A stretch of 64,000 nucleotides of DNA from positions 82,586,001-82,650,000 of the forward strand of contig NC_086097.1 in assembly GCF_963921235.1 (NCBI RefSeq), written 5' to 3'. The notes below the pieces were generated by a model, which ran no database searches, was not told where the DNA came from, and was given only the letters and a program-made list of their open reading frames with translations. This DNA is from Mobula hypostoma (lineage: Eukaryota). Below are positions 4,989 through 62,179 of this stretch, one piece after another. Position numbers and translations under genes: made by a program. How positions within the stretch are numbered: the first letter of the stretch is position 1; every line of letters begins with the position of its first letter.

Positions 4989-5124
4989 GGTAACACATGC
5001 TTAGAGAATGGCTCCTATCTACTGAATTATGTGGGTTGTGCTAAGTGCAGTAAAAGAGACTTTGTGCTGATTACTAATAGAACCCAGGACGATGATGACG
5101 GAGAAGAAATTGTTACATATGACC
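4989..5124 (+). CDS. CHURC1: Churchill zinc-binding protein, coding exon 2 ([45 protein letters not shown])
   Basis: Acceptor AG at 4987-4988 after a pyrimidine tract and donor GTGAGT at 5125. 136 nt, phase 0 to 1. The translation is recognisably vertebrate Churchill. Confidence 0.96.
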
Positions 5125-6588
5125 GTGAGTTACTGGCTTTTAAATCTTCAGTTCAAGTTGAAGTTAAATTTTTAAACATCGAAAAAGATTGTATTTCAAT
5201 ACCCAAAAGTGGCCAAAAGTATTTGAGCGTTATGTTTAAAAAGCTCAATTCTTATGCAATAACACTAGAAACAGGTTTCCCTTAAATTTTCCTTTTATGA
5301 AGAAAAATTAGAGGGTGGAGAAAAATGTTTGCAATCTTTGTTACTTGGGAACTTTAGTATCCAGTGTACTCTTGTTAAATCCTTGCTATTACAATGTACT
5401 GTCAGCAATCAGTGGGGAGTGGGGGTTGCAGTACTGATCACATGAGAATTACTCCAAGCAGTTCTGGTGCACCATACACTAGTATGCTATGCATCAACCT
5501 TAAAATTGCTGTACATCATTTGCTTATCCTTTTAAGTAATATTTTACACTGCAGTTCTATATTTTATTGTGAAACAATATAAATATAAAATGCAACGAAA
5601 ATAAGTGGACGATTGGTGCTCACCATTACATGAAGGGTCAAGTCCTCAGAGTATTGTTGCTGAACAGGCTGTAACTGTACATCCGAATGTGATGTGTAAA
5701 TGAAAATGAACTGAAAGCACCTTTTCACACTTACCTTGCAGAATGCTTGAAATAAAATTCTCTGCTAAGCTCATATTTTTGTAAAAACGGGTTTTTTTTG
5801 GCCAGGTTGCATGAGTATTCCAGATGAATGAATACAGGATAAGTGAGAACTTGCTATATTGAATGCATTACTGTATATACATTTGTCTGGATTTACAAAA
5901 TGGAATTTTATAGATCCAGAGCACTGAAATAATAGAATGGCAAGGAATGCTGATGTAGCTGTTTGAGATTCCACTTGTTTGAATTGAGATAGTAAGCTGT
6001 TTTAAGCTTTTGTTGAATTAGCATTGGTGTCTTATTAAAATTTGAAGATCCCAGAATTAGCTGAATGACATAAACTTCGATTTTCATTGCAGATTTCTTT
6101 TTACAGCTTGAAGCGACATGGGAGAGAAAAATATTGATCTAGAAATTGTGAAATAAATTAACATTTTCCTGTAAATATTTTTGATTGACATTCCGTGAAA
6201 ACCATTATATTCTGTAATAGCTATCTGTAAAGGTTCTTTAATAGGCGATCTGTATTATTTGTACTTACTGAAAGTGTTTTAATATATCGTCACATGCAAA
6301 AAAAAACTCAAAATAGTACCATTATTGTGATGTCCTCAGCAAGTACCATGTAAACTAACCAGAGAGATTCCAAGGTATTAATTTGATCCTTGGATATAAA
6401 ACAATTGTTTAAGATTTGCCTTTGTAGTTTACTAATGCATATAGAGGCCCTTATTATATAGTTGTTGATTTATCTATTTAGTAATTTATTTATATATAAT
6501 TAAATAATGCATATAGAGGCCTTTATTATATATCATCCTGAACTGCACTGCTGAACAACCTCCATTTGCATCATTTGTGTTCTTTCAG

Positions 6589-6659
6589 ACATATGTCAGA
6601 ATTGCCACCATATTATAGCAAGACATGAATACACGTTTACTGTTGTTGATGAGTACCAG
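6589..6659 (+). CDS. CHURC1: Churchill coding exon 3 ([24 protein letters not shown])
   Basis: TTCTTTCAG acceptor and GTAAGA donor. 71 nt; the phase joins exon 2 (C|AC = His) and exon 4 in frame. Confidence 0.96.
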
Positions 6660-6779
6660 GTAAGAACTAGTCCCTGTTTGTTAAACATTGTAAATAATGA
6701 CACATTTTTTTAATAATAGCATACCCAGCACTGTAGTTTTATTTACAGAAAATGTGATATGTCATTCTGAATCTATATC

Positions 6780-7705
6780 AGTGATAGGAGGAAATCAGGA
6801 GGTCGTAAAGGGATGGTGAGATATCCCTGCTAGATAAGATTAGGAATAATCCTAAAAGATTCTGTTTATTAAGAGCGAAAGGGTAATTAGAAAGAATATC
6901 CCTTAAGGGTCAGTGTGGTAACCTGTGTGTGGAGCCAAGGGAAATGGGCAAGATCTGAAATGAATATTGATTGTGAAGAAGGATATGGGTGTCATTGAGT
7001 TCAGGGGATGGGACAGTGATATCCTGGAGCATATTGACATGACAAGGGAGGAAGTGATGGAGGTCTTGAAACCCATAAAAGTCAATAATCACAGAGCCTG
7101 ATCAGATGTACATGAGGATATTAAATGAAGGAACAAAGAGGTCGGCAGAGAATTTTGTGTCTTTGTTAGCCACAGGTGAGGTATGTGAAGAGAAGGTTAC
7201 TTATATTGTGCCTTTATTTAAGAAGGGCAGCAGAAACAAGCCAGGAACTTCAGACTGGTGAACCATGCCCCACGGGGTGGGAAAGGTATTGTAGGGAATC
7301 TGAGTGACGGGATTTATTTGTAGTTGGAAAGATAGGGATAGTGAGCATGGTTTTACACAAGAACCCAAGAAATAGGAGCAAGAGTCAGCCATCTGGCCTA
7401 TTGAACCTGTTCCACATTCAATAAGGTCATGGCTGATCTGGCCGTGAACTCAGCTCCACCTATGTTGTCTTTTCCCCATCACTCTGCTAAACAAAAACCT
7501 GTGAACACTGTGTACAGTTCTGGTCGCCACACTCAAGGAAGGATTAAACTTGAAGGAGTGCAAAAGAATTCACAAGGTGTTGAAGGGCTTGATTTATGGA
7601 CTTGGATTTAATCAAATAAGTGGGATTACTGTAGATAAAAATGATGATGAGCATGGCTGTGGTAGACCAAGGGGCCTGCTTCTATGCTGTGCAACTCTGT
7701 TATAT
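6780..7705 (+). mobile_element. Degraded, internally deleted CR1 fragments in CHURC1 intron 3
   Basis: Remnants such as GTGCCTTTATTTAAGAAGGGCAGCAGAAACAAGCCAGG (VPLFKKG..KPG) and a CR1-like 3' tail. Confidence 0.65.
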
Positions 7706-8139
7706 CCATTAGAATGTCTGGAAATCAAGCAAAATTGGATCTTCATTCTGTTCTAAGTATTTTAAACATTGACCTTCAAAACTGATTTTAAAAATTACTT
7801 GTTTCCCAACAGTTGTTCATGCCTGTCAGCACTCTTGATATAAATGAATAATTTCTCATCTCATGACAGCATTGTCAGGTCTGCTATTGAACAATATCCA
7901 TCATATATATGTAATCAGATAGTATCAGTTTGAGACAAATGCTTAAGTGTGCATAAAGGAAAACTAAGGTGATTGGGGCACATTTAAAACTTAAAAGAGT
8001 ACAGCTGGGTAGAATTTTTCATTCATTACTACTATGGTTAAAGTGTTGCCTTGGTTTGAAATCATTCAGTCATTCTTACCTTGTATTGATACAACATGCT
8101 TCCAAAATTAATTACCCCTAGGTGCCTAATGAGTGTCAT

Positions 8140-8391
8140 TATTAGGCATCCGTTAGTCTCGTGAGACCATGGATTTGCGCCTTGGAAGGTTTCCAGGGTG
8201 CAGGCCAGGGCAAGGTTGTATGGAAGTCTCAAGTCTGCAAGTCTCCCCTCTCCACGCCACCGATGTTGTCCAAGGGAAGGGCACTAGGGTTAAGTGCCTC
8301 GCTCAAGGGCACACCACGCTGCTTCAGCTGAGGCTTGAACTAGTGACCTTCAGATCACTAGACCGACGCCTTAACCACTTGGCTACACGCC
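8140..8391 (-). mobile_element. tRNA-derived SINE with an RTE-like 3' part
   Basis: The minus strand begins GGCGTGTAGCCAAGTGGTTAAGGCG (A box) ... TAGTTCAAGCC (B-box-like), then TGCCCTTGAGCGAGGCACTTAACC. Confidence 0.75.
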
Positions 8392-8618
8392 AACACATGA
8401 GTGTTAATTGCGGTTAATTCCCTAACTAGCCAGCTCAATCTGCTTCAAATTCACCTTGGTCTCTTTATACCCCCACCTGGAAAATGCACTAATGTTGTAA
8501 TAAGAAATTCAGTTTTTTATTTGACAAGAAACTGCTTTAACACTGAGCAGATTGATGTTTCATATTTGCAGTGCTGATGTTTTTGAAGTACTAAATCTTT
8601 TCTTCCTTTTTACTTCAG

Positions 8619-8711
8619 GAATATACTATGTTGTGTATGCTGTGTGGAAAAGCGGAAGACTCTATCAGTGTATTGCCAGATGATCCACGGCAAATGGCTC
8701 CCCTCTTCTGA
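8619..8711 (+). CDS. CHURC1: Churchill last coding exon ([30 protein letters not shown])
   Basis: Long pyrimidine tract plus CAG acceptor; 93 nt ending in TGA. Matches the Churchill C-terminus (LCxLCGKAEDxISxLPDDPRQ). Confidence 0.96.
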
Positions 8712-9568: not shown

Positions 9569-9666
9569 CACAAACATGAGAAAATCTACAGATGCTGGAA
9601 ATCCAGGCAGCATCTGTGGAAAAGAGTGAACAATTGATGTTTTGGGCTGAGACCCTTCATCAGTAA
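9569..9666 (-). mobile_element. 98-bp Penelope-derived mini insertion with a decayed hammerhead motif
   Basis: PLE terminus (AAATCTACAGATGCTGGAAATCC...GAGACCCTTCATCAG). 12-bp TSD TTGGGGTTAGAT at 9557-9568 and 9667-9678. Confidence 0.8.
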
Positions 9667-12422: not shown

Positions 12423-12616
12423 TTTCTTCCAATTGACATTAACATTCGGAATATAGACAGGAAAGTTTACAAAATTACATATTTACAGTGGCAGGACATT
12501 CCAACTAGTTTCTGAGTACAAACTGCAGACAACCAAAATATAAATCCCTTTTGAAGGATTGCTCCATGAATATACAACTGACCAGAAAGTTAAGTGATAA
12601 AACAGATCTGTAATGA

Positions 12617-14915
12617 ACCCCGCAGTAATGACCCTTTCTCCCGTCTTCAAACCTCCTCCTCTTGCGAGGCACCCCACACTGGACTTCTACCTGCTCTGGA
12701 TCTTTTCATTGCCAACTGCTAACGGGACATCAACCATCTCGACTTAAGCATGCCGCTCTCCTATTCCAACCTCACCCCTTTCAAATGCTTTGCTCTCCAC
12801 TCCCTCCGTACCAATCCTAACCTCACCATCAGACTCACAGATAAAGAGGTGCTGGCAGACTGACCTCTACCTTGCTGAGGCCCAGCAACAACTCTCAGAC
12901 AGTTCTTCTTACTTACCCCTTGAACAGGACCCCAGCAAGGAACACCAGGCTATTGTTTCCTACACCATCACCAACCATATTAGCTCTGGGGATCTCCCAT
13001 CCACTCCCAACCTCATAGTTCCCGCACCTTCCATTTCTACCTCCTACCCACGATCCACAAACCCACTTGTCCAGGTAGACCCATTGTTGCAGCTTGTTCC
13101 TGCCGCACTGAACTCATATCAGCGTATCTCAACTCAGTTTTATCCCCCTGGTTCAATCCCTTCCTACCTACATCCGTGACACTTCATATGTTCTGGATCT
13201 TTTCAACGATTTCAAGTTTCCTGGCCCCCATCATTTTATTTTTACTGTGGATGTCCAGTCCATATAAACCTCCAACCCCCAACAGGAAGGCCTGAAAGCT
13301 CTCCATTTCTTTCTGGACACCAGACCTAACCAGTTCCTCTCCACCACCATTCTCCTCTGTCTAGAGGAACTTGTCCTCACTCTCAATAATTTCTCCTTTT
13401 ACTCCTCCCACTTCCTTCAAACAAAAGGTGTAGCCATGGCCACCTGCATGGGTGCCAGCTATGCCTGCCTTTTTGTCAGCTACGTGGAACAGTCCATGTT
13501 CCAAGCCTGCACTGTTGTCTGTCCGCCACTTTTCCTACACTACATCGACGACTGCATTGGTGCTGCTTCCTGCACTCATGCTGAGCTCGTCGATTTCATC
13601 AACTTTGCCTCCAACTTCCACCCTGCCCACAAATACACCTGGTCCATTTCCAACACTTCACTCCCCTTTCTCAATCTCACTCTCTCTATTTCTGGAGACA
13701 GCTTATCAACTGATGTCTATTATGAACCCACGGACTCTTACAGCTACCTTTTCCCACCCTGTTACTTGTAAAAACATCATCTCCTTCTCTCAATTCCTCC
13801 ATTTCGGCAGGAGATATCTTCCTTTTTAAAAGAAAGGGGCTTCTATTCCTCCACCATCAACACTGCTCTCAACTGCATCTCTTCCATTTCACACACATCT
13901 GCTCTGACCCATCCTCCTGCCACCCTGCCAGGATAGAGTTCCTCTTGTCCTCACCTACCACACCACCAGCCTCCACGTGCAGCACATAATTCAACAGAAT
14001 TTCTGCCATCCCCAACACGATCTCACCACCAAGCACATCTTTCCCTCTCCCCAATTTCTGCTTTCTGAGGGATTGCTCCCTATGCGACTCCCTTGTCCAT
14101 TTGTCCCTCATCACTGATCTCCCTCCTGGCATTTATCCTTGCAAGCAGAACAAGTCCTACACCTGCCCCTACACCTCCTCCCTCACTACCATTCAGGGCC
14201 CCAAACAGTCCTTCAGGTGAGACAGCACTTCACCTGTGAGTCTGTTAGGGTTTATATACTGTGCTCGGTGCTTCCTGTGTGGCCTCCTGTATAGCGGGGA
14301 GACCGCTTTGACAAGCACCTATTCACCATCCGCCAGAAAAAGTGTGATCTCCCAGTGGTCACCCATTTTAATTCTATTTCCCATTCCCATTCCCATTCCA
14401 ACATGTCAGCCCATGGCTTCCTTTACTGCTGCGATGAGGGCACACTCAGGTTGAAGGAGCAACACTTTATATTCTGTTTGGGTAGCCTGATGGCATGAAC
14501 ATCGATTTCTCGAATTTATGATAATGGCCCCCAACCCCCTCCTTTACCATTTCCCACCCACTTTTTCCTCTCTCACCTTATCCTTGCCTTCCCATCGCCT
14601 CCCTCTGGTGCTCCTCCCTTTTCTTTTTCCTCATGGCCTTCTGTCCTCTCCTATCAGACTCCCCCTTCTCCAGCCCTGTATCTCTTTCACCTATCAACTT
14701 CCCAGCTCTTTACCTCATCCCTTCCCCCTCCCGGTTTCACCTATCACCTTGTGTTTCTCTCTCCCCTTGCCAACCTTTTAAATTTACCCATCTTTTTTGA
14801 TCACAGCCTGAAACGTCAACTGTACTTTTTTCAATTGATGTTGCCTGGCCTGCAGAGTTCCTCCAGTATTTTGTGTGTGTTGCTTGGATTTCCAGCATCT
14901 ACAGATTTTCTCTTG
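12617..14915 (+). mobile_element. Penelope-like retroelement (RT + GIY-YIG endonuclease + terminal repeat), frameshifted
   Basis: RT motifs FTVDVQS (about 13240), QTKGVAMATCMGASYACLF and YIDD (ORF 13436). GIY-YIG-like IYCARCFLCGLLYSGET (ORF 14236). PLE terminal repeat ending CCAGCATCTACAGATTTTCTC. Confidence 0.9.
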
Positions 14916-14991
14916 TCTAAAATGAACTGTGCCTTAAGTAGCAGGGATACACATTTAGTAATGTTCTAAAAGCAAGAACATTCATCATTTG

Positions 14992-15369
14992 ACACACATA
15001 AAAGTTGCTGGTGAACGCAACCGGACAGGCGGCATCTCTAGGAAGAGGTACAGTCGACGTTTCGAGCCGAGACCCTTCGTCAGGACTAACTGGAAGAAGA
15101 GCTAGTAAGAGATTTGAAAGTGGGAGGGGGAGGGGGAGATCCGAAATGATAGGAGAAGACTGGAGGGGGAGGGATGGAGCCAAGAGCTGGACAGTTGATT
15201 GGCAAAAGGGATATGAGAGGATCATGGGACAGGAGTCCTAGGGAGAAAGAAAAGGGGGAGGGGGGAAAATCAGAGGATGGGCAAGGGGTGCAGCCTGGCC
15301 TGCTGCATTCACCAGTAACCTTTATGTGTGTTGCTTGAAATTCCAGCATCTGCAGATTTCCTCGTGTTT
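14992..15369. mobile_element. Young Penelope-derived non-autonomous insertion with inverted termini
   Basis: A minus-oriented terminal repeat (14992-15290) is fused to a plus-oriented terminus (about 15295-15369). Perfect 14-bp TSD ACATTCATCATTTG at 14978-14991 and 15370-15383. Confidence 0.88.
15051..15088 (-). ncRNA. Minimal type I hammerhead ribozyme, intact core
   Basis: The minus strand reads UAGUC-CUGACGA-A-GGG-UCUCGG-CUC-GAAA-CG-UC-GACUG. Stem I UAGUC/GACUG, CUGANGA and GAAA boxes, stem II, palindromic ACGU stem III and a GUC cleavage triplet are all present. Confidence 0.82.
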
Positions 15370-15474
15370 ACATTCATCATTTGTCTTTCCCTATGTAGAT
15401 TCAATGGGACAGAATCAGAAATGTACCACACCCAATAATTGGTTTCACTAGCCACTAGATATCATTTGGATGTG

Positions 15475-15630
15475 AAACACAAGAGATTCTGCTAATACTG
15501 GAAATTTTGAGCAACAAACACAAAATGCTGGAGGAACTCAGCAAGGCAGGCAGCATTTATGGAGAGGAATAAACAGTTGATGTTTCAGGCCGAAACCCTT
15601 GATCAGGACTGAAAAGGAAGGGGGAAGATG
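15475..15630 (-). mobile_element. Penelope terminal-repeat fragment with a mutated hammerhead (CUGAUCA)
   Basis: ACAAAATGCTGGAGGAACTCAGC...GATGTTTCAGGCCGAAACCCTTGATCAGGACTG. Confidence 0.75.
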
Positions 15631-15699
15631 ATGGAAATTAAATTGTGTACAGGTTTTATTTCCCGAAGACAGGTTCTCTTTTTAGTTAATCGATACTAC

Positions 15700-15996
15700 T
15701 CTGGTGGCGTAGTGGCATCAGCCGCTGGACTTTGGGGTGAGACGACCCGAGTTCGAGTCCGGCCAGCTCCCTTGCACGCTCTCCATCTGTGCCTGGGTTG
15801 AGTGTTGAGCTAACAACTTGACCTCGTAAAAAAAGACCCGGAGAGGGATGGGCTCCGCCAGGTTTCAGATGCCCAAGACACGCTGTATGATGAGCAAACC
15901 AAAAAGATCGATGCAAAAAGCTTGTCATGATGGCACCCTGACGACTCCACCAGGAGTTAAGGGCGCGCGCGCGCGCGCACGCACACACACACACAC
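15700..15996 (+). mobile_element. tRNA-derived SINE ending in a (GC)n(AC)n microsatellite
   Basis: A box TGGCGTAGTGG (about 15706) and B box GAGTTCGAGTCC (about 15749); tail at 15963-15996. Confidence 0.75.
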
Positions 15997-17770: not shown

Positions 17771-18716
17771 ATCTGATCTATTCTCAGTTCAATTGAAAAA
17801 AATTACCCTGCTTTTTTTGCTCTTGATTATTTCTTATGCTTTTCCACTTTTCTATTACAATCACTGCCCACTGAAACATGCACTTCTGTAGTTCCTTCGC
17901 CAGAACTAAATCCACCATTACCTCTTTCCACTTATACTTCAAGTACCAACCCCCATCTTTACCCTTTACACTAGCTATGTTAGGAAAACTGAACTTACCA
18001 CATCACTTGTGTAGTTATTGAAATTTCTGTAGTTTACCTACAAAATAGCTCCTCTAATGCCTTTCCACTATTTGATAGCCTTTAGTATATATTCAGCAAC
18101 ATTAACATCTCCTCTGTATTCCTTAATATAATTAAAAGGATTTTTTTGAAACCACACTTCTGCTATTGCTGTAATAGTTTACAGTATATGATCGATACTT
18201 CTACACCCCCTGTGTTCCTCCCCTTTACTGGATTACTTGTGGCTGAGAATACTGATATCCTGATGCTCCTCTGCTGCATACAGACTTTACTGTCTCCTAA
18301 TATGCAATCTCACTGCAACACTGCTCGACTGGAACTGGAATTGCACTAATCAGCCATATAAACAAACTTTAAACATGCTGTGGCTGACTTAGTATCTCCT
18401 GAGCCTGACAACAAATTCCTGAAATTGGTAAGAATACCATTTCCAAAAATTAACTTTCTGTAACATGACATACACAAAAGTTGAGCAAAGAAAGATATGT
18501 GTGGAATGCAATGCTGATCCAACATTTCTCTGAATAAATAAATGTCTTTTTAGTTTCCAGGCTGCAAAAACTTCCTTCTAAAGAGCAAAATCTGATAGAA
18601 GCCCTCAGAATAATAGATTTAAAATAATTACAAGTCATTCATTATCAACCTTATATTAATTAAATCTTTGGAAAATAAATTATAACATTAAAGGGATGCA
18701 AAATGTCATTAAATGC

Positions 18717-18991
18717 CAGTAACACAAACAAAATACTGGAGGGACTCAGCAGGCTTGGCAGCATCTATGGGAAAGAGTAAACAGTCAATGTTTCAGGCTG
18801 AGGCCCTTCATCAGGTCTGGGGGAGAAAAAGATGAGAGGTCAGAGTAAGAAGGTGGAATTCCCAGTCCTGATGAAGGGTCTCAGCCGAAAATGTTGACTG
18901 TCTACTCTTTTCCTGGCCTGCTGAGTTCCTCCAGCATATTGTGTGTATTGCTTGGATTTCCAGAATCTGTAGATTTACTCGTGTCTTTGGT
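18717..18991. mobile_element. Penelope-derived mini element made of two inverted termini, each with a hammerhead motif
   Basis: Minus HHR motif at 18782-18819 and plus HHR motif at 18863-18900 (CAGTCCTGATGAAGGGTCTCAGCCGAAAATGTTGACTG). 11-bp TSD TCATTAAATGC at 18706-18716 and 18992-19002. Confidence 0.85.
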
Positions 18992-25997: not shown

Positions 25998-27582
25998 TTT
26001 TACAACGTTGGATCACAGGTGATTTAATTTGGCTTCTTTTGACACTGATTAACAGAAAAAGACTCTTTCGTGTTAAAGTGAAAATACGGTGATCTAAATT
26101 AATTACAAATATAAAACACAAAATAATTGATTGCACAAATATTCTCCCCCTTTAATATGACACACCAAATCATCACTGGTGCAGCAAATTGATTTTAAAG
26201 TAACATAGTTAGCTAAATGGAGATCTGTTTTTGAGATCTGTGTGCAATCAAGGTGTTTCAATTGATTGTAGTGAAAATACACCTGTATCTGGAAGGTGCA
26301 TCTGCTTTTGAGTCAGTATCCTGGCAAAATATATATCATGAGGACAAAAGAACACTCCAAGCAACTCCATATAAAGGTTATTGAAAAGCACAATTGAAGG
26401 TTATTGAAGGATACAAGAAAATTTCCAAGACACTGAATATCCCTTGGAGTACAGTTGTCAATCATCAAGAAATGGAAAGAATATGGCACAGCTGTAAGTC
26501 TGTCTGGAGCAGGCCATCCTCAAAAACTGAGTGACCTTGCAAAAAGCAGACTAGTGAGTGAGGGCACCAGGAGACTCTTGACAACTGCGGAGGAGTTACA
26601 AGCTTCAATACCTGACGCAGGAGAGACTAGCATACAACAATTGCTGTCCGGGTGCTTCACCAGTCACAGCTTTATGGGAGAGTGGCAAAGGAAAAAGCCA
26701 CTGTTGAAAAAACTCACATTAAATCTCGGCTAGATTTTGCCAGAAGGCATGTGGGAGACTCTGAAGTCAGCTGGAAGAAGGTTCTGTGGTCTGATGAAAG
26801 CAAAATTGAGATTTTTACTATCAGACTAAACGTTATGTTTGGTGTAAACCAAACACTGCACATCATCAGAAACACACCATCCCTACTGTGAAGCTTGGTG
26901 GTGGCTGCATCATGCTGTGGGGATGCTTCACTGCAGCAGGCCCTGGAAGGCTTGTGAAGGTAGAGGGTAAAATGAATGCAGCAAAGTACAGGAAAATCCT
27001 GGAGGAAAACCTGCTGCAGTCTGCAAGAGAACTGCAACTTGGGAAAAGATTTGTTTTCCAGCAAGAAAATGACCCCAAGCATAAAGCCAAAGCTACACAG
27101 GAATGGCTTAAAAACAACAAAGTTAATGCTCTGGAGTGGCCAAGTCAAAGTCCAGACCTCAATTCAATTGAGAATTTGTGGCTGGATTTGAAAAGGTCTG
27201 TTCACTCACGACCCCCATGCAATCTGACAGAGCTTGAGCAGTTCTGTAAGGAAGAATGGGGAAAAATTGCAGTGTGCAGATGTGCAAAACTGATAGAGAC
27301 CTATCCACACAGAGTCAAGGCTGTAATTGCTGCCAAAGGTGCATCTCCTAAATACTGATTTGAAGGGGGTCAGTAATTATGCAATCAATTATTTTGTGTT
27401 TAATAACTCTAATAAATTTAGACCAATTTGTAGAAATTTGTTTCTACTTTGACACAAACGAGTCTTTTCTGTTGATCAGTGTCAAAAAAGCCAAATTAAA
27501 TCCACTGTGATACAACGTTGTAAAACAACAAAACATGAAAACTTCCGAGGGTGGGGGGGGTGAAAACTTTTTACAGTGCACT
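25998..27582 (+). mobile_element. Tc1-like DNA transposon fossil with a near full-length, frameshifted transposase
   Basis: ATG at about 26338, stop at 27356-27358. Motifs VLWSDESKIE, GGGCIMLWGCF, FQQENDPKH and WPSQSPDLNSIENLW. Long inverted repeats at about 25998-26152 and 27362-27582; the outer left end is missing. Confidence 0.93.
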
Positions 27583-47202: not shown

Positions 47203-48587
47203 TGTCATGGTCCGGATCGGGGTTCCTTTAAATTTACCTTGTTTATGTTAGGATCCGGACCGTTGATTCCCTGTTTTCCCGTGTCCCTCGGCTTTGGTGA
47301 TTAGAGGCAATTAACGTTCGGCTGAACCGGTAGTTTATAGTCTCCAGCTTTCAGTTGTTCGGCGCGAGAGCGTCGGCAAAGTCATCAAAGGTACAGTGTG
47401 CCGATGTCATCTGGCCGGAGCAAGCCTAGTCTCTGCCGAAGCGAGTGCCAGTAATTCGCCCTTCCTCACCGGAGCAACCCTGTCAAGTTACCTCGCCGAA
47501 GCAAGCCTGCAAAGTTTCCGCATCAAGGTGTATCTGTCAGTTAACCCGCCGGAGAGAATCAAGAGCTGCTGTCTACTGTTCCCAGGCCGAATCTAGAGCT
47601 CGCCACTACCCGGAGGTTCCAAGTACCACGCCCAAGTCCTGGCTCCAGCAGCGTCCAAGTCCTGGCTCTGGCGGCATCCAAGTACCACGTCCAAGTCCAA
47701 GTCCTGGCTCCGGTGGCATCCAAGTACCATGTCCAAGTCCAAGTCCTGGCCCTGGCAGTCTGTGATTCCTGTCCTATCCCCCTGTCTGAATCCCTTCTCT
47801 GCCCCTCTCGCCTCTAGCCCTCGTCTGTAGCCCTCGCCTGCACTTCGGTCTAGTTCTATCGCTGGAACTAGATAGGAACTGTGTTGTTCTTTGGTGTTTG
47901 TCTTGTCTTGTCCTCGCCTCCGTGGGGTCAGTCAGGCTGTCTTGCCGTTGCTCCGCGGGGGGTCTTGTCTTGTCCTTGCCTCCGTGGGGTAAGTCAGGCC
48001 GTCTTGCCGTTGCCCCGCGGAGGGTCATGAGTCCCGGCCCTGTGTCCTGTATCCAAGGAGGGGTCCCGGCTCTCTGTTCTGTGTGTGAGTCCCGGCCCTA
48101 TGTCTTGTACCCAAAGAGGGGTCCTGGCTCTCTGTTCTGTGTGTGAGTCCCGGCCCTATGTCCTGTACCCAAGGAGGGGTCTCGACTCTGTGTTCTGTGT
48201 ATGTGTCCATGGTTCCATGTACCTGCTCTCCTGAGACCAAGGCTCTGTTTTCCATGTTTCTCCTCTCCCTAGCCCATGTCATGTCTATGCCTGGTTCTGG
48301 GGTCCAAGCCCGAGGCAAGACCCAGGTACTGGGTCCTTGCCCAGTCTCAGGCTCAGAGTCCATACCCTAGCCTCTTCATGCCTCCTCTAGTTCTGGGAGC
48401 CGATTTCGCATCCTAGCCCAGACCCTTGGTCCCAGCCTAGTCGTGGTCCTCAGTCCTTGTCCAGTTCGCTATTCCTACTCCTGCCTTGCTCTCCTGGTTT
48501 CGAACATAAACTAAATTTAGTTAACCTCACAAGATGTGTCTTGCATTTGGGTCCACCGTTGCTCCCAATTCCTCTGCCAATGTGACA
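47203..48587 (+). mobile_element. Solo LTR (probably Gypsy-type), 1385 bp, with internal tandem repeats
   Basis: Termini TGTCA...TGACA; perfect 5-bp TSD CAAGT at 47198-47202 and 48588-48592; CpG-rich. The CR1 sequence resumes on both sides. Confidence 0.9.
48028..48201 (+). repeat. 58-bp tandem repeat, 3 copies, inside the LTR
   Basis: Units beginning TGAGTCCCGGCCCT start at 48028, 48086 and 48144. Confidence 0.9.
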
Positions 48588-53305: not shown

Positions 53306-54172
53306 TTTATGAGAAGACCAATAACCTTGGATATATTTCAGAATAAGGTCTTAGAGGTCACGAATCTATGCTAGAGAGCTGAAGGCATTGAATCACTGAA
53401 TAGGTGGAGAGTTTTGATCAAATTATTTTTGTATTACAGGGAAGTTGAGGGCAGGCAGGAAAGTGCTAAGGCTCAGTTCCAGTCAGTGATGATCTTATTG
53501 AACATTAAAGTTGAAAAATATTCACGCCATTGCCAGAATATGAGGTGTTATTCCCCTGGTATATGTCAGGCCTCACTGCAGTAGTGGAGAAGTGTAAGGA
53601 TGGACACGTTTGTGGAAGAATGGGAAACAGAATTGAAATGGCATGTAACTGGGAGCTTGGGATAGCCATTTTGGAAAGAAGAAATGTTCTGAAAAATGGT
53701 TGCTCAAAAACCTACACTTGGTCTCACCAGTGTAGAGGAGGCCACATCCGGAGCAACAAATGCAGTAGATGAGGTGAAGGAGGACATGTTTGTGAATCTT
53801 TGCCTCATCCGGATGTAGTGAGGGAGGAGTGTAAGAACAAGTGTTACACCTTTTGCAATTGCAGGGGAAAGTCCCAGGGGTCAGGGATATGTGGGTGGGG
53901 AGGTCTGTGTGGACCAGGGAGTCACAGAGAGAGTGGTTCCTCTGGAAGGAGGAAAAGTGGAGTGAGGAGAAGACATTGCAGGATATTGTTGTAGCTGGTG
54001 GAAATAATGAATGATGTGCTGGATGTGAAGCTCGTGGAGTAAAGGGAGAGGACTAGGGGACCTTTACCACTGTTTGGTCTGGAGGAAGATAAGGTGAAAA
54101 ACAGAGGAGGTGTGTGAGTGTTCTTAATCAACTACAGCAGAAAGGAAGCCACATTTCTTGAAAAAGGAGGAT

Positions 54173-57100
54173 CAGTACTTGGAGCTATGATGTTGTGGCC
54201 ATTACAGAGACTTGGATGGCTTAGGGGCAGGAACGGTTACTTCGAGTGACAGGCTTTAGGTGTTTCAGAAAGGACAGGGAGGGAGGCAAAGAGGTGGGGG
54301 CATGGCACTGTTGATCAGAGATAGTGTCACAGCTGCAGAAATGGAGGAAGTCATGGAGGGATTGTCTACGGAGTCTCTGCGGGTGGAAGTCAGGAACAGG
54401 AAGGGGTCAATAACTCTACTGGGTGTTTTTTGTAGATCACCCAATAGTAACAGGGACATTGAGGAGCAGATAGGGAGGCAGATTCTGGAAAGGTGTAATA
54501 ACAACAGGGTTGTTGTGGTGGGAGATTTTAATTTCCCAAGTATCGATTGGCATCTCCCTAGAGCGAGGGGTTCAGATGGGTTGGAGTTTGTTAGGTGTGT
54601 TCCGGAAGGTTTCTTGACACAATATGTAGATAACCCTACAAGAGGAGAGGCTGTACTTGATTTGGTATTGGGAAATGAACCTGGTCAGTGTCAGATCTCT
54701 CAGTGGGAGAGCATTTTAGAGATAGTGATCACAATTCTATCTCCTTTACTATAGCATTGGAGAGGGATAGGAACAGACAAGTTAGGAAAGCATTTAATTG
54801 GAGTAAGGGGAAATATGAAGCCATCAGGCAGGAACTTGGAAGCATAAATTGAGAACAGATGTTCTCAGGGAAATGTGACAAAGGTTCAGGGGATATTCGT
54901 GTGGAGTTCTGCATAGGTACATTCCAATGAGACAGGGAAAGTGTACAAAGGCTGTTGAAAATCTAGTCAAGAAGAAAAGAAGAACTTACGAAGGGTTCAA
55001 AAAACTAGGTAATGATACAGTAGAGATCTAGAAGATTATAAGGCTAGCAGGAAGGAGCTTAAGAATGAAATTAGGAGAGCCAGAAGGGGCTATGAGAAGA
55101 CCTTGGTGGACAGGATTAAGGAAAAACCCAAGGCATTCTACAGGTATGTGAAGAGCAGGAGGATAAAATATGAGAGAATAGGACCAATCAAGTGTGACAC
55201 TGGAAAGGTGTGTATGGAAGTGGAAGAGATATCAGAGGTACTTAATGAATACTTTGCTTCAGTATTCACTACAAAAAAGGACCTTGGAAATTGTAGGGAT
55301 GACTTACAGTGGACTGAAAAGCTTGAGCATATAGATATTAAGGAAGAGAATGTGCTTGAGCTTTTGGAGCAGACGAGATGTACCCCAGGCTACTGTAGGA
55401 GGCGAGGGAGGAGATTGCTGAGCCTCTGGCGATGATCTTTGCATCATCAATGGGGACGGGAGAGGTTCCGGAGGATTGGAGGGTTGCAGATGTTGTTTCC
55501 TTATTCAAGAAAGGGAGTAGAGATAGCCCAGGAAATTATAAACCAGTGAGTCTTACTTCAGTAGTTGGTAAGTTGATGGAGAAGATCCTGAGAGGCAGGA
55601 TTTATGAAAATTTGGAGAGACATAATATGATTAGGAATAGTCAGCTTGGCTTTCTGAAAGGTAGGTCGTGCTTTACGAGCCTGATTGAATTTTTTGAGGA
55701 TGTGACTATACACATTGATGAAGGTAGAGCAGTAGATGTAGTGTATATGGATTTCAGCAAGGCATTTGACAAGGTACCCCATGCAAGTCTTATTAAGAAA
55801 GTAAGGAGGCATGTAATCCAAGGGGACATTACCTTGTGGATCCAGAACTGGCTTGCCCACAGAAGGCAAAGTGCGGTTGTAGGTGGGTCATATTCTGCAT
55901 GGAGGTCGGTGACAAGTGGTGTGCCCCAGGGATCTGTTCTGAGACCCTTACTCTTTGTGATTTTTATAAATGACCTGGATGAGGAAGTGGAGGGGTGGGT
56001 TAGTAAATTTGCTGATGACACAAAGTTTGGAAGTGTTGTGGATAGTGTGGAGGGCTGTCAGAGGTTACAGCAGGACATTGATAGGATGCAAAACTGGGCT
56101 GAGAAGTGGCAGATAGAGCTCAACCCAGATAACTGTGAGGTGGTTCATTCTGGAAGGTCAAATATGGTGACAAAATATAGCATTAATGGTAAGACTCTTG
56201 GCAGTGTGGAGGATCAGAGGGATCTTGGAGCCCAAGTCCGTAGGACAGGGGTCCCCAACCTCTTTGGCACTGCGGACCGGTTTAATATTGACAATATTCT
56301 TGCAGATTGGCCGACCGGGTGGGGGGTGGGGTAGGGCTGCCAACAGACAAGAATAGCAGTCAAATACATTGTGTTTACCCCGAGAAAGACTACCATGACC
56401 ATGAAGCCTTGCACAGACACCTATGTGCGCATGCGTGACATGCGCATACGAGTACGTGCCCATTTTTTCCCTACAAATCATTTTTGGCAATTCTTTTCAG
56501 TGAAACTACACTGTACATGCATTATTTCTACTTTATTTAGGCTGTGTATTTATCATATCATTCCTGCTTTTACTATATGTTAGTGTTATTTTAGGTTTTA
56601 TGTAACAGTGCATGATAATAGTGATAAGTCAATTATAGGTCACTTATAAGTTAATAGCATCATAACATTTTAAGTAACGTTTGGATATTAAACACACAGC
56701 ATATATTTTCCCCATATGAACATATAAGATCATTGTAACACACCAATATCGCTGAATCAGTGGGAGCCCTGGGCTTGTTTTCCTGCAACAAGACGGTCCC
56801 ATCGAGGGGTGATGGGAGACAGTGATACTCGAACGGGGTTCCTTATGTCCGGTCTATTCTGCAATTTAGTTTTCGTTGCATTCCTTGCAGAGATATGTTG
56901 GAAATGGAAGCAATGTTTTCAGTGATTTCGTGGCTATCTCAGAATATTTAGCCTTGACTTTGATCCAGAATGCCGGCAGAGATGTTATGTCAAACATACT
57001 TTTCAGCCCGCCGTCATTTGCAAGCTCGAGGAGTTGATCTTCTTCCTGCGCTGACATGGATGACGCACAGGTAATGACCTCGCATGTGTTCAAATTCAAC

Positions 57101-61474: not shown

Positions 61475-61779
61475 GCAAACACGAGGAAATCTGCAGATGC
61501 TGGAAATTCAAGCAACACACACAAAGGGGTCATGTCAAGTGACTATCCAACTCGCAACACACACAAAATGCTGGTGAACGCAGCAGGCCAGGCAGCATCT
61601 ATAGGAAGAGGTACAGTCGATGTTTCGGGCCGAGACCCTTCATCAGGACTAACTGAAAGAAGAGATAGTAAAAGATTTGTAAGTGGGGGGGGGGAGGGTA
61701 GGGAGAGATCCAAAATGATAGGAGAAGACAGGAGGCGGGGGGGATAGAGCTAAGAGCTGGAAAGTTGATTGGCAAAATG
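61475..61779 (-). mobile_element. Young Penelope-derived mini insertion
   Basis: Near-identical to 14992-15205. 13-bp TSD GAATCTAGCTAAA at 61462-61474 and 61780-61792. Confidence 0.88.
61614..61651 (-). ncRNA. Minimal type I hammerhead ribozyme, intact core
   Basis: Minus strand UAGUC-CUGAUGA-A-GGG-UCUCGG-CCC-GAAA-CA-UC-GACUG, with an AUC cleavage triplet. Confidence 0.78.
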
Positions 61780-62179
61780 GAATCTAGCTAAAATTGTTTG
61801 AGGATTGAGTGAAGAGCCAATAAAATGACATCTGCCATGGACCTGTTGTTCTTCTCAGGCAGGAGTTGATATGTTTCATCACCAACTTCCCAAAAACTTC
61901 ATCACTGTGGATATAAGTGCTACTGGATGATAGTTGAGGCACATTACCATGTTCTTCTTGGGCACTGGTATTTTTTTTTAAAGAGCAAAAGAACTAAAAA
62001 CATAAAAGGAAACAAAGAGCACCTTTGCAGCAATATCCAAAATTTTTAAACAAGAGCAACAATTAAAAGTCATGGATAACACTTTCTCTGCTGGCAGAAA
62101 TGGGTAATTGCTCATCAATTATCTTATAAATTCTGTTTTCAGTTAATTTTACATAACTTTGGAGTCTCACATTAAACCA

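Follow-up and report, generated by a model that had tools for sequence, protein, structure and literature searches.

A 38-nucleotide motif on the minus strand of the Mobula hypostoma DNA analysed here (64,000 nucleotides, hereafter the window) has the make-up of a hammerhead RNA, which raises the question of whether this copy is a working ribozyme or what is left of a mobile element. Sequence comparison and folding predictions point to a passive relic of the known Penelope hammerhead class, not a working ribozyme, as very probably the right answer. The copy is likely inactive because a mutation in stem II is predicted to weaken its fold and because it has no intact neighbour to pair with. Behind this reading stand direct observations, namely the motif, its place in an inverted pseudo-LTR (pLTR), the tail and target-site duplication (TSD) of the insertion, the private change in stem II and the neutral decay of sister copies.

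The hammerhead motif and its relatives

Read from 15088 to 15051, the minus strand is UAGUC CUGACGA A GGG UCUCGG CUC GAAA CG UC GACUG, letter for letter as the first-pass annotation had quoted it, and the core, stems, palindromic stem III and predicted cut assigned there all hold. In stem I, 15088–15084 pair with 15055–15051, with a U·G at the terminus and Watson-Crick pairing at the other four positions. The core CUGACGA (15083–15077) is followed by an unpaired A (15076) between positions 9 and 10.1 and by stem II, in which 15075–15073 form three pairs with 15066–15064. G15075-C15064 is the G10.1-C11.1 pair, and a fourth pair (U·G, 15072/15067) is possible, closing a 4-nt loop. Within this hairpin (15064..15075) a private change at 15065 turns pair 10.2–11.2 from G-C into G·U. 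GAAA occupies 15063–15060. The palindrome ACGU (15057..15060), which contains a CpG, represents stem III, C17 is at 15056 and the predicted cut falls between 15056 and 15055. Because ACGU has no loop, formation of stem III requires two molecules. A reading of 15051..15088 as a canonical, monomer-active hammerhead was rejected.

A descriptor scan, one of the checks that the first-pass annotation had proposed, combined the core, a stem II of at least 3, a palindromic stem III and a stem I of at least 4. It matched the window once, at 15051..15088, and found a match in one of 300 dinucleotide shuffles; the bare CTGANGA…GAAA pattern is unenriched in the window, with 10 matches against 7.65 expected. 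A covariance model (R1), built solely from 12 motifs of non-ray loci, scored the motif at 36.8 bits (E 6.9e-9), which ranks second among 35 matches behind a sister copy at 61611–61653 that has lost the palindrome. Shuffles and model score together rule out a chance match. The proposed search with Rfam Hammerhead_1 failed to detect the motif: at gathering scores, hammerhead families included, the window gave no match, and at E≤10 the region 14800–15800 gave three, none to a hammerhead family. A miss is what one expects of a motif lacking helix III, and it counts solely against Rfam membership. Judged by its sequence, the motif is a real minimal hammerhead motif (min-HHR) with every testable sequence feature of the minimal hammerheads of Penelope-like elements (PLEs).

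Min-HHRs in the pLTRs of metazoan PLEs were described by Cervera and De la Peña (2014, PMC4209133), and the class, the dimer logic and scattered single copies are already published there. As far as the main part of that paper describes them, they resemble the ray motif in being of type I without loop 3 and with a palindromic 15.2–16.2, in the unpaired base between 9 and 10.1, in G10.1-C11.1 and in a stem I of 4–5 bp. They also occur mostly as single motifs in truncated copies, with some opposite-strand pairs 100–700 bp apart. Unlike the Schistosoma families, where helix II has 7–8 bp, the ray motif has 3–4 bp in this helix, and it carries a private G·U. Fish min-HHRs are reported in Xena, Poseidon and Neptune elements, whereas cartilaginous fish are unnamed in the main part of the paper (PMC4209133). 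A literature search that was thin on subscription journals, with paper and preprint supplements outside its reach, returned no paper on hammerheads in elasmobranchs and one preprint that names Chondrichthyes.

Homologous elements of other animals provided 80 related loci, kept from 217 found in metagenomes. Twenty-nine of these were eligible for comparison, as they extend at least 150 nt past the ORF end. The minimal motif lies in sense, 90–304 nt downstream of the ORF, in 9/29, and the other 20 have no descriptor match; it was found neither antisense (0/29) nor inside the ORF (0/29), nor in 100 shuffles. Across 12 distinct related motifs, seven of eight stem pairs have changed on both sides, with a covariation score of 0.91 that drops to 0.12 or less when the alignment is slid. 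Since the descriptor demanded pairing, the pairing rate of the relatives is partly circular; their place and strand, as well as the unpaired A and G10.1-C11.1 (both invariant in 12/12), are free of that circularity. The palindrome reads ACGT in 11 relatives and ATAT in one. Motifs of three loci (L027, L029 and L036) naturally carry G·U at pair 10.2–11.2, so the private change of the ray copy need not abolish activity. In some loci the motif is present in both flanking repeats, either inverted (L027:2014(-) and 4185(+); L036:975(-) and 4328(+)) or direct (L002:1028 and 4094; L006:269 and 3421). Exact-pattern scans for further ray copies came back empty on viral and on metagenome contigs (0 stretches each).

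The 378-bp insertion and its parent family

The motif is embedded in a Penelope-like insertion of 378 bp (14992–15369), delimited by target duplication and alignment, whose two arms stand head to head. The larger arm (14992..15288, minus strand) is an inverted, tail-less 3' part of a pLTR. It spans 297 bp, bears the motif and is without the terminal 38 bp of the repeat. It can be aligned with the terminal repeat that follows the RT-EN copy next to it and, at 86%, with 61557–61781. The other arm (15289..15369, plus strand) is a direct pLTR end, truncated on its 5' side to 81 bp and including the 38-bp tail (~15332–15369); it starts downstream of the hammerhead and therefore has none. Its first 43 bp mirror 15034–14992 at 36/43 positions. 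The 7/43 differences between the mirrored arms (14992–15034 and 15289–15331) lie above the ~3% found elsewhere in the insertion, which may reflect small numbers together with unlisted positions, or different templates for the arms.

Identical 14-bp duplications of the target flank the insertion on the left (14978..14991, plus strand) and on the right (15370..15383, plus strand), and a common 14-mer was seen in 1/1050 control window pairs. The duplication is A/T at 10/14 positions and contains ATT. We placed contigs of four public runs (X1, a DNA run, X5, X12 and X19) on 1.2 kb around the motif at 85% likeness. X12 and X19 may be RNA runs, but contigs do not reveal RNA ends, so the cover of these two and their lack of end pile-ups carry no information on expression or cleavage. 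The right duplication is spanned by contigs of X1 (15348–15530, 0 differences) and X5 (15348–15504, 1 difference), and 526 X1 contigs depart from the family sequence at 15369. Both kinds of end (14916 and 15369; 15510 and 15518) are points at which public contigs break away from the family, and among the 15 joints listed from them none was an empty-site joint.

An inverted pLTR, a 30–40-bp tail at one end and a TSD are all present and are features of EN+ PLEs. In the accounts of such insertions that we draw on (PMC3846280, PMC8557442), the arms are likewise head to head, with the inverted arm shorter by the tail (here 38 bp). Unlike those insertions, the ray copy has no ORF between its arms, and its direct part is cut to 81 bp; its TSD of 14 bp compares with 8–10 bp in rotifer elements (PMC3846280, PMC8557442). 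The anole Poseidon element PAc (Frangieh et al. 2024, PMC11167929) also has a hammerhead in its pLTR, an AT-rich target and an optional tail between two reverse-transcription start sites. PAc differs in belonging to the Poseidon clade and in an ORF start inside stem II, whereas the ray family has a Neptune/Nematis-type linker. Cleavage of PAc was measured and is protein-dependent (PMC11167929), whereas that of the ray copy is a matter of prediction.

The neighbouring copy (12612..14918, plus strand) is an older PLE with frameshifted RT and GIY-YIG remnants (12612–~14520), a direct terminal repeat after the ORF and a broken hammerhead near 14790–14825. The motif-bearing repeat of the insertion also follows the RT-EN remnant here, in sense. 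Pfam returned 0 families for 8/8 broken frames of this element, which was therefore identified through its homologues. Among 932 candidates, 59 were homologous to the RT part of 12612–14495, the best at 78% and from Mobula and Hypanus. RVT_1 was found in 6/7 and GIY-YIG in 3/7 of the homologues scanned, and in tblastn the RT and GIY-YIG homologues tile the 12612–14495 remnant. Alignments, homologues, related loci and the R1 score agree with the first-pass assignment of the motif to the minimal type I hammerheads that Penelope-type elements carry in their terminal repeats. Between RT and EN, the consensus of the homologues contains a CX4CxxC linker, which is present in a window copy at 53863; the neighbouring 12612..14918 copy has lost one of the cysteines. 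A CX2-5CxxC linker in this place is described for Neptune and Nematis (PMC8557442), and the ray family may belong to one of these clades.

Three Penelope-type pieces of differing age lie within 3 kb (12612–15631), the 378-bp insertion starting 73 bp past the old copy. This clustering agrees with a reported preference for inserting beside earlier copies.

These features can be brought together in one explanation. The terminal-repeat hammerhead of a ray Penelope-like family was very probably copied into a truncated head-to-head insertion and acquired the stem II mutation afterwards. In a tandem transcript of a master element, two motifs may join through ACGU and exchange their stem I strands, likely aided by the element's own protein, and the cut would fall after GUC. 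If target-primed reverse transcription began at two start sites 38 nt apart, it could produce both the direct end with its tail and the inverted copy without one. Cutting of the present copy would require minus-strand transcription and a second family RNA in trans.

Abundance, age and decay of the copies

In X1, 189,912 contigs were placed on the 1.2 kb, and over the motif their depth adds up to 5.9 million, compared with 10.8 for the junction contig of the locus itself. The family is very abundant, although depth gives no copy number. At 15065 the other base accounts for 5,345,285 of 5,421,059 depth units of X1 (98.6%), and the same is seen in X5, X12 and X19; the stem II G·U is private to this copy. 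At least 12/378 positions of the insertion differ from the family majority (at least 3.2%), and within 15051–15064 no difference of 20% or more from that majority occurs among the rows listed.

The right junction is also spanned by a contig from a second organism that shows 1 difference over 157 positions. This contig has 22 letters inside the insertion, fewer than the 31-letter rule asks for, and is weak evidence for a common junction. The organism is ~1.2% away by a rough estimate from word shares, and the right junction appears to be shared with this sister species. Over the aligned stretch the copy is 50–66% identical to an older subfamily. It is young relative to that subfamily, yet probably older than the species split. 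The first-pass annotation had called the ribozyme intact and the insertion young. All core bases and the palindrome are indeed there, but stem II carries the private G·U and the fold is predicted to be less accessible (see below). Youth likewise applies relative to the older subfamily but not to the family at large, given the distance from the majority and a junction apparently found in a second species.

A profile search of the window gave 16 matches, of which 14, at E<0.01, are terminal-unit pieces, and none in the reversed window. Ten of the 14 pieces were aligned, the other four being short, tail-only or very old. The copy at 15051..15088 is the one among the ten with a complete motif; in the palindrome column two copies keep ACGU, five have ACAT and three ATGT. 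When a younger pair is set against seven older copies, differences fall on 3/34 resolved columns of the motif, compared with 10/12 and 10/46 columns (20/58 together) in the flanks between the same two subfamilies. The expectation that the motif would be better conserved than its flanks is borne out at the family level. Within single copies, non-CpG divergence is 49/340 in the motif and 82/496 in the 3' flank (p 0.44), and CpG columns are changed at 16/40. Small as these numbers are, they fit a motif that was selected in master elements and copies that decay neutrally after insertion.

The decay extends to the nearest potential partner. An older terminal-repeat fragment (15475..15631, minus strand) has the same orientation as the motif and lies 0.5 kb upstream of it. 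The hammerhead of this fragment (15571–15613, R1 21.4 bits), the nearest on the minus strand, has a broken core and no palindrome, which makes it a poor partner.

Target duplications were absent at 6/10 intervals tested. Short terminal-repeat insertions at 61477–61781, 18711–18986 and 9571–9663 each have a duplication of 13–14 bp with one mismatch. The first of these repeats the tailed and tail-less build, with ~26 foreign bases between its arms, and in 18711–18986 each arm holds a decayed motif, the two lying 77 bp from each other on opposite strands.

Prospects for cleavage and for a host role

In folding models, which ignore tertiary contacts, Mg2+ and proteins, the private G·U leaves the stem II hairpin at -0.7 instead of -3.7 kcal/mol, a cost of 3 kcal/mol; in context the predicted cost is 3.5–4.7 kcal/mol. 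With the private change, the predicted cost of the active fold rises from 4.2 to 7.7 kcal/mol with 10-nt flanks and from 6.0 to 10.6 kcal/mol with 40-nt flanks. Twelve relatives span 1.3–6.1 kcal/mol at 40 nt, and the active fold is predicted to be less accessible here than in 12/12 of these related motifs. In the bare 38-mer the core bases are predicted to pair with the cleavage-site strand (-9.9 kcal/mol, compared with -4.5 for the open-core fold), and with at least 10 flanking bases the predicted stem pair values are no higher than 0.03. The double hammerhead reaches a predicted -7.9 kcal/mol, far from the -28.1 kcal/mol of the best competing dimer.

The published record points the same way. 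A minimal motif from Schistosoma did not cleave as a monomer and cleaved weakly as a dimer (PMC4209133). The anole motif was cut only with the protein of the element, its cleavage was dispensable for insertion in vitro, and no RNA-seq ends appeared at its site (PMC11167929). A review agrees on low or protein-dependent activity of minimal motifs (PMC6765202).

It is against this background that a still competent copy has to be weighed, one that would occasionally cut in trans with family RNAs via ACGU and stem I and be neutral for its host. Such a copy would draw on a full set of catalytic-core bases with the palindrome, on a family majority that appears to keep stem I and ACGU (15051–15064, among the rows listed), on relatives with G·U at the same pair and on the very high abundance of the family. 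We nevertheless consider it unlikely, given the competing dimer, the opening cost that exceeds those of the 12 relatives at 40 nt, the weak dimers and missing RNA-seq ends of the published cases, and a search that found no minus-strand host gene. The earlier suggestion that this copy could be active is thus upheld as far as the complete core goes, but it is weakened by the lack of a complete partner in the window, by the antisense position relative to CHURC1 and by the weakness of published motifs.

A bolder idea, to which we give a still smaller chance, follows from the many near-identical copies with a common stem I and ACGU: in rays, transcripts running through such insertions could pair up in trans and cleave one another, forming a transposon-seeded layer of self-cleavage across the transcriptome. 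The single copy described here matters little, the class being abundant and published. The ray family, with its high numbers and natural variants such as the G·U copy, is a test bed for the in vivo role of PLE hammerheads, a role that has been called unclear (PMC8557442).

The host gene nearest to the relic is Churchill (CHURC1), with three coding exons at 4995..8711 on the plus strand. Two exons match Pfam Churchill (E 7e-17 and 7e-9) and the last was found by motif and translation. The CHURC1 stop lies 6.3 kb before the motif and on the opposite strand, with nine A(A/T)TAAA signals between it and 12412. Because the motif is downstream of and antisense to CHURC1, read-through would not yield the ribozyme strand. 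A scan of 150 frames for host exons on the minus strand detected none; two frames matched Pfam, both as RT. The scans covered frames of 45 aa or more outside masked repeats, with 149/154 frames on the plus strand, and short or non-coding minus-strand exons would escape it. The remaining 55 kb of the window gave no other host exon, and searches with short motifs of candidate CHURC1 neighbour genes gave nothing convincing.

Domesticated host hammerheads of the conserved intronic type lie in sense in the host transcript and are conserved above the neutral rate. The ray copy is antisense to and outside the CHURC1 coding span, and it carries a private stem II change. That selection keeps it for a host role, for example by cutting antisense transcripts that enter the 3' end of CHURC1, is in our judgement highly improbable. 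The copy is the sole complete one among 10 aligned, it points towards CHURC1 on the antisense strand and its junction is apparently common to two species. Its completeness, however, is accounted for by its being among the least diverged copies, it has acquired a destabilising change, the copies as a group are without constraint, and two species roughly 1.2% apart are too close to reveal constraint.

That the insertion is a non-LTR retrozyme unit, or its motif a chance match, has next to no probability: a preprint (bioRxiv 10.64898/2026.07.22.740005) does report retrozymes derived from PLE pLTRs in one chondrichthyan, with a mean consensus of 363 bp, and these are, like the 378-bp insertion, non-coding, pLTR-derived, of similar length and equipped with a type I hammerhead, but their definition asks for at least two tandem units, each with a complete motif, whereas this locus is a single inverted insertion with one motif, no tandem repeat and inverted arms within a TSD, and chance is opposed by one match in 300 shuffles and E 7e-9. 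The retrozyme unit is refuted for this locus, which has no tandem array and one complete motif in the window.

Elsewhere in the window we noted a LINE remnant with endonuclease and RT Pfam matches (54260–56331, plus strand), a Tc1-like DDE transposase remnant (26385–27355, plus strand) and a cluster of GC-rich tandem repeats with periods of 23–62 bp (47464–48208).
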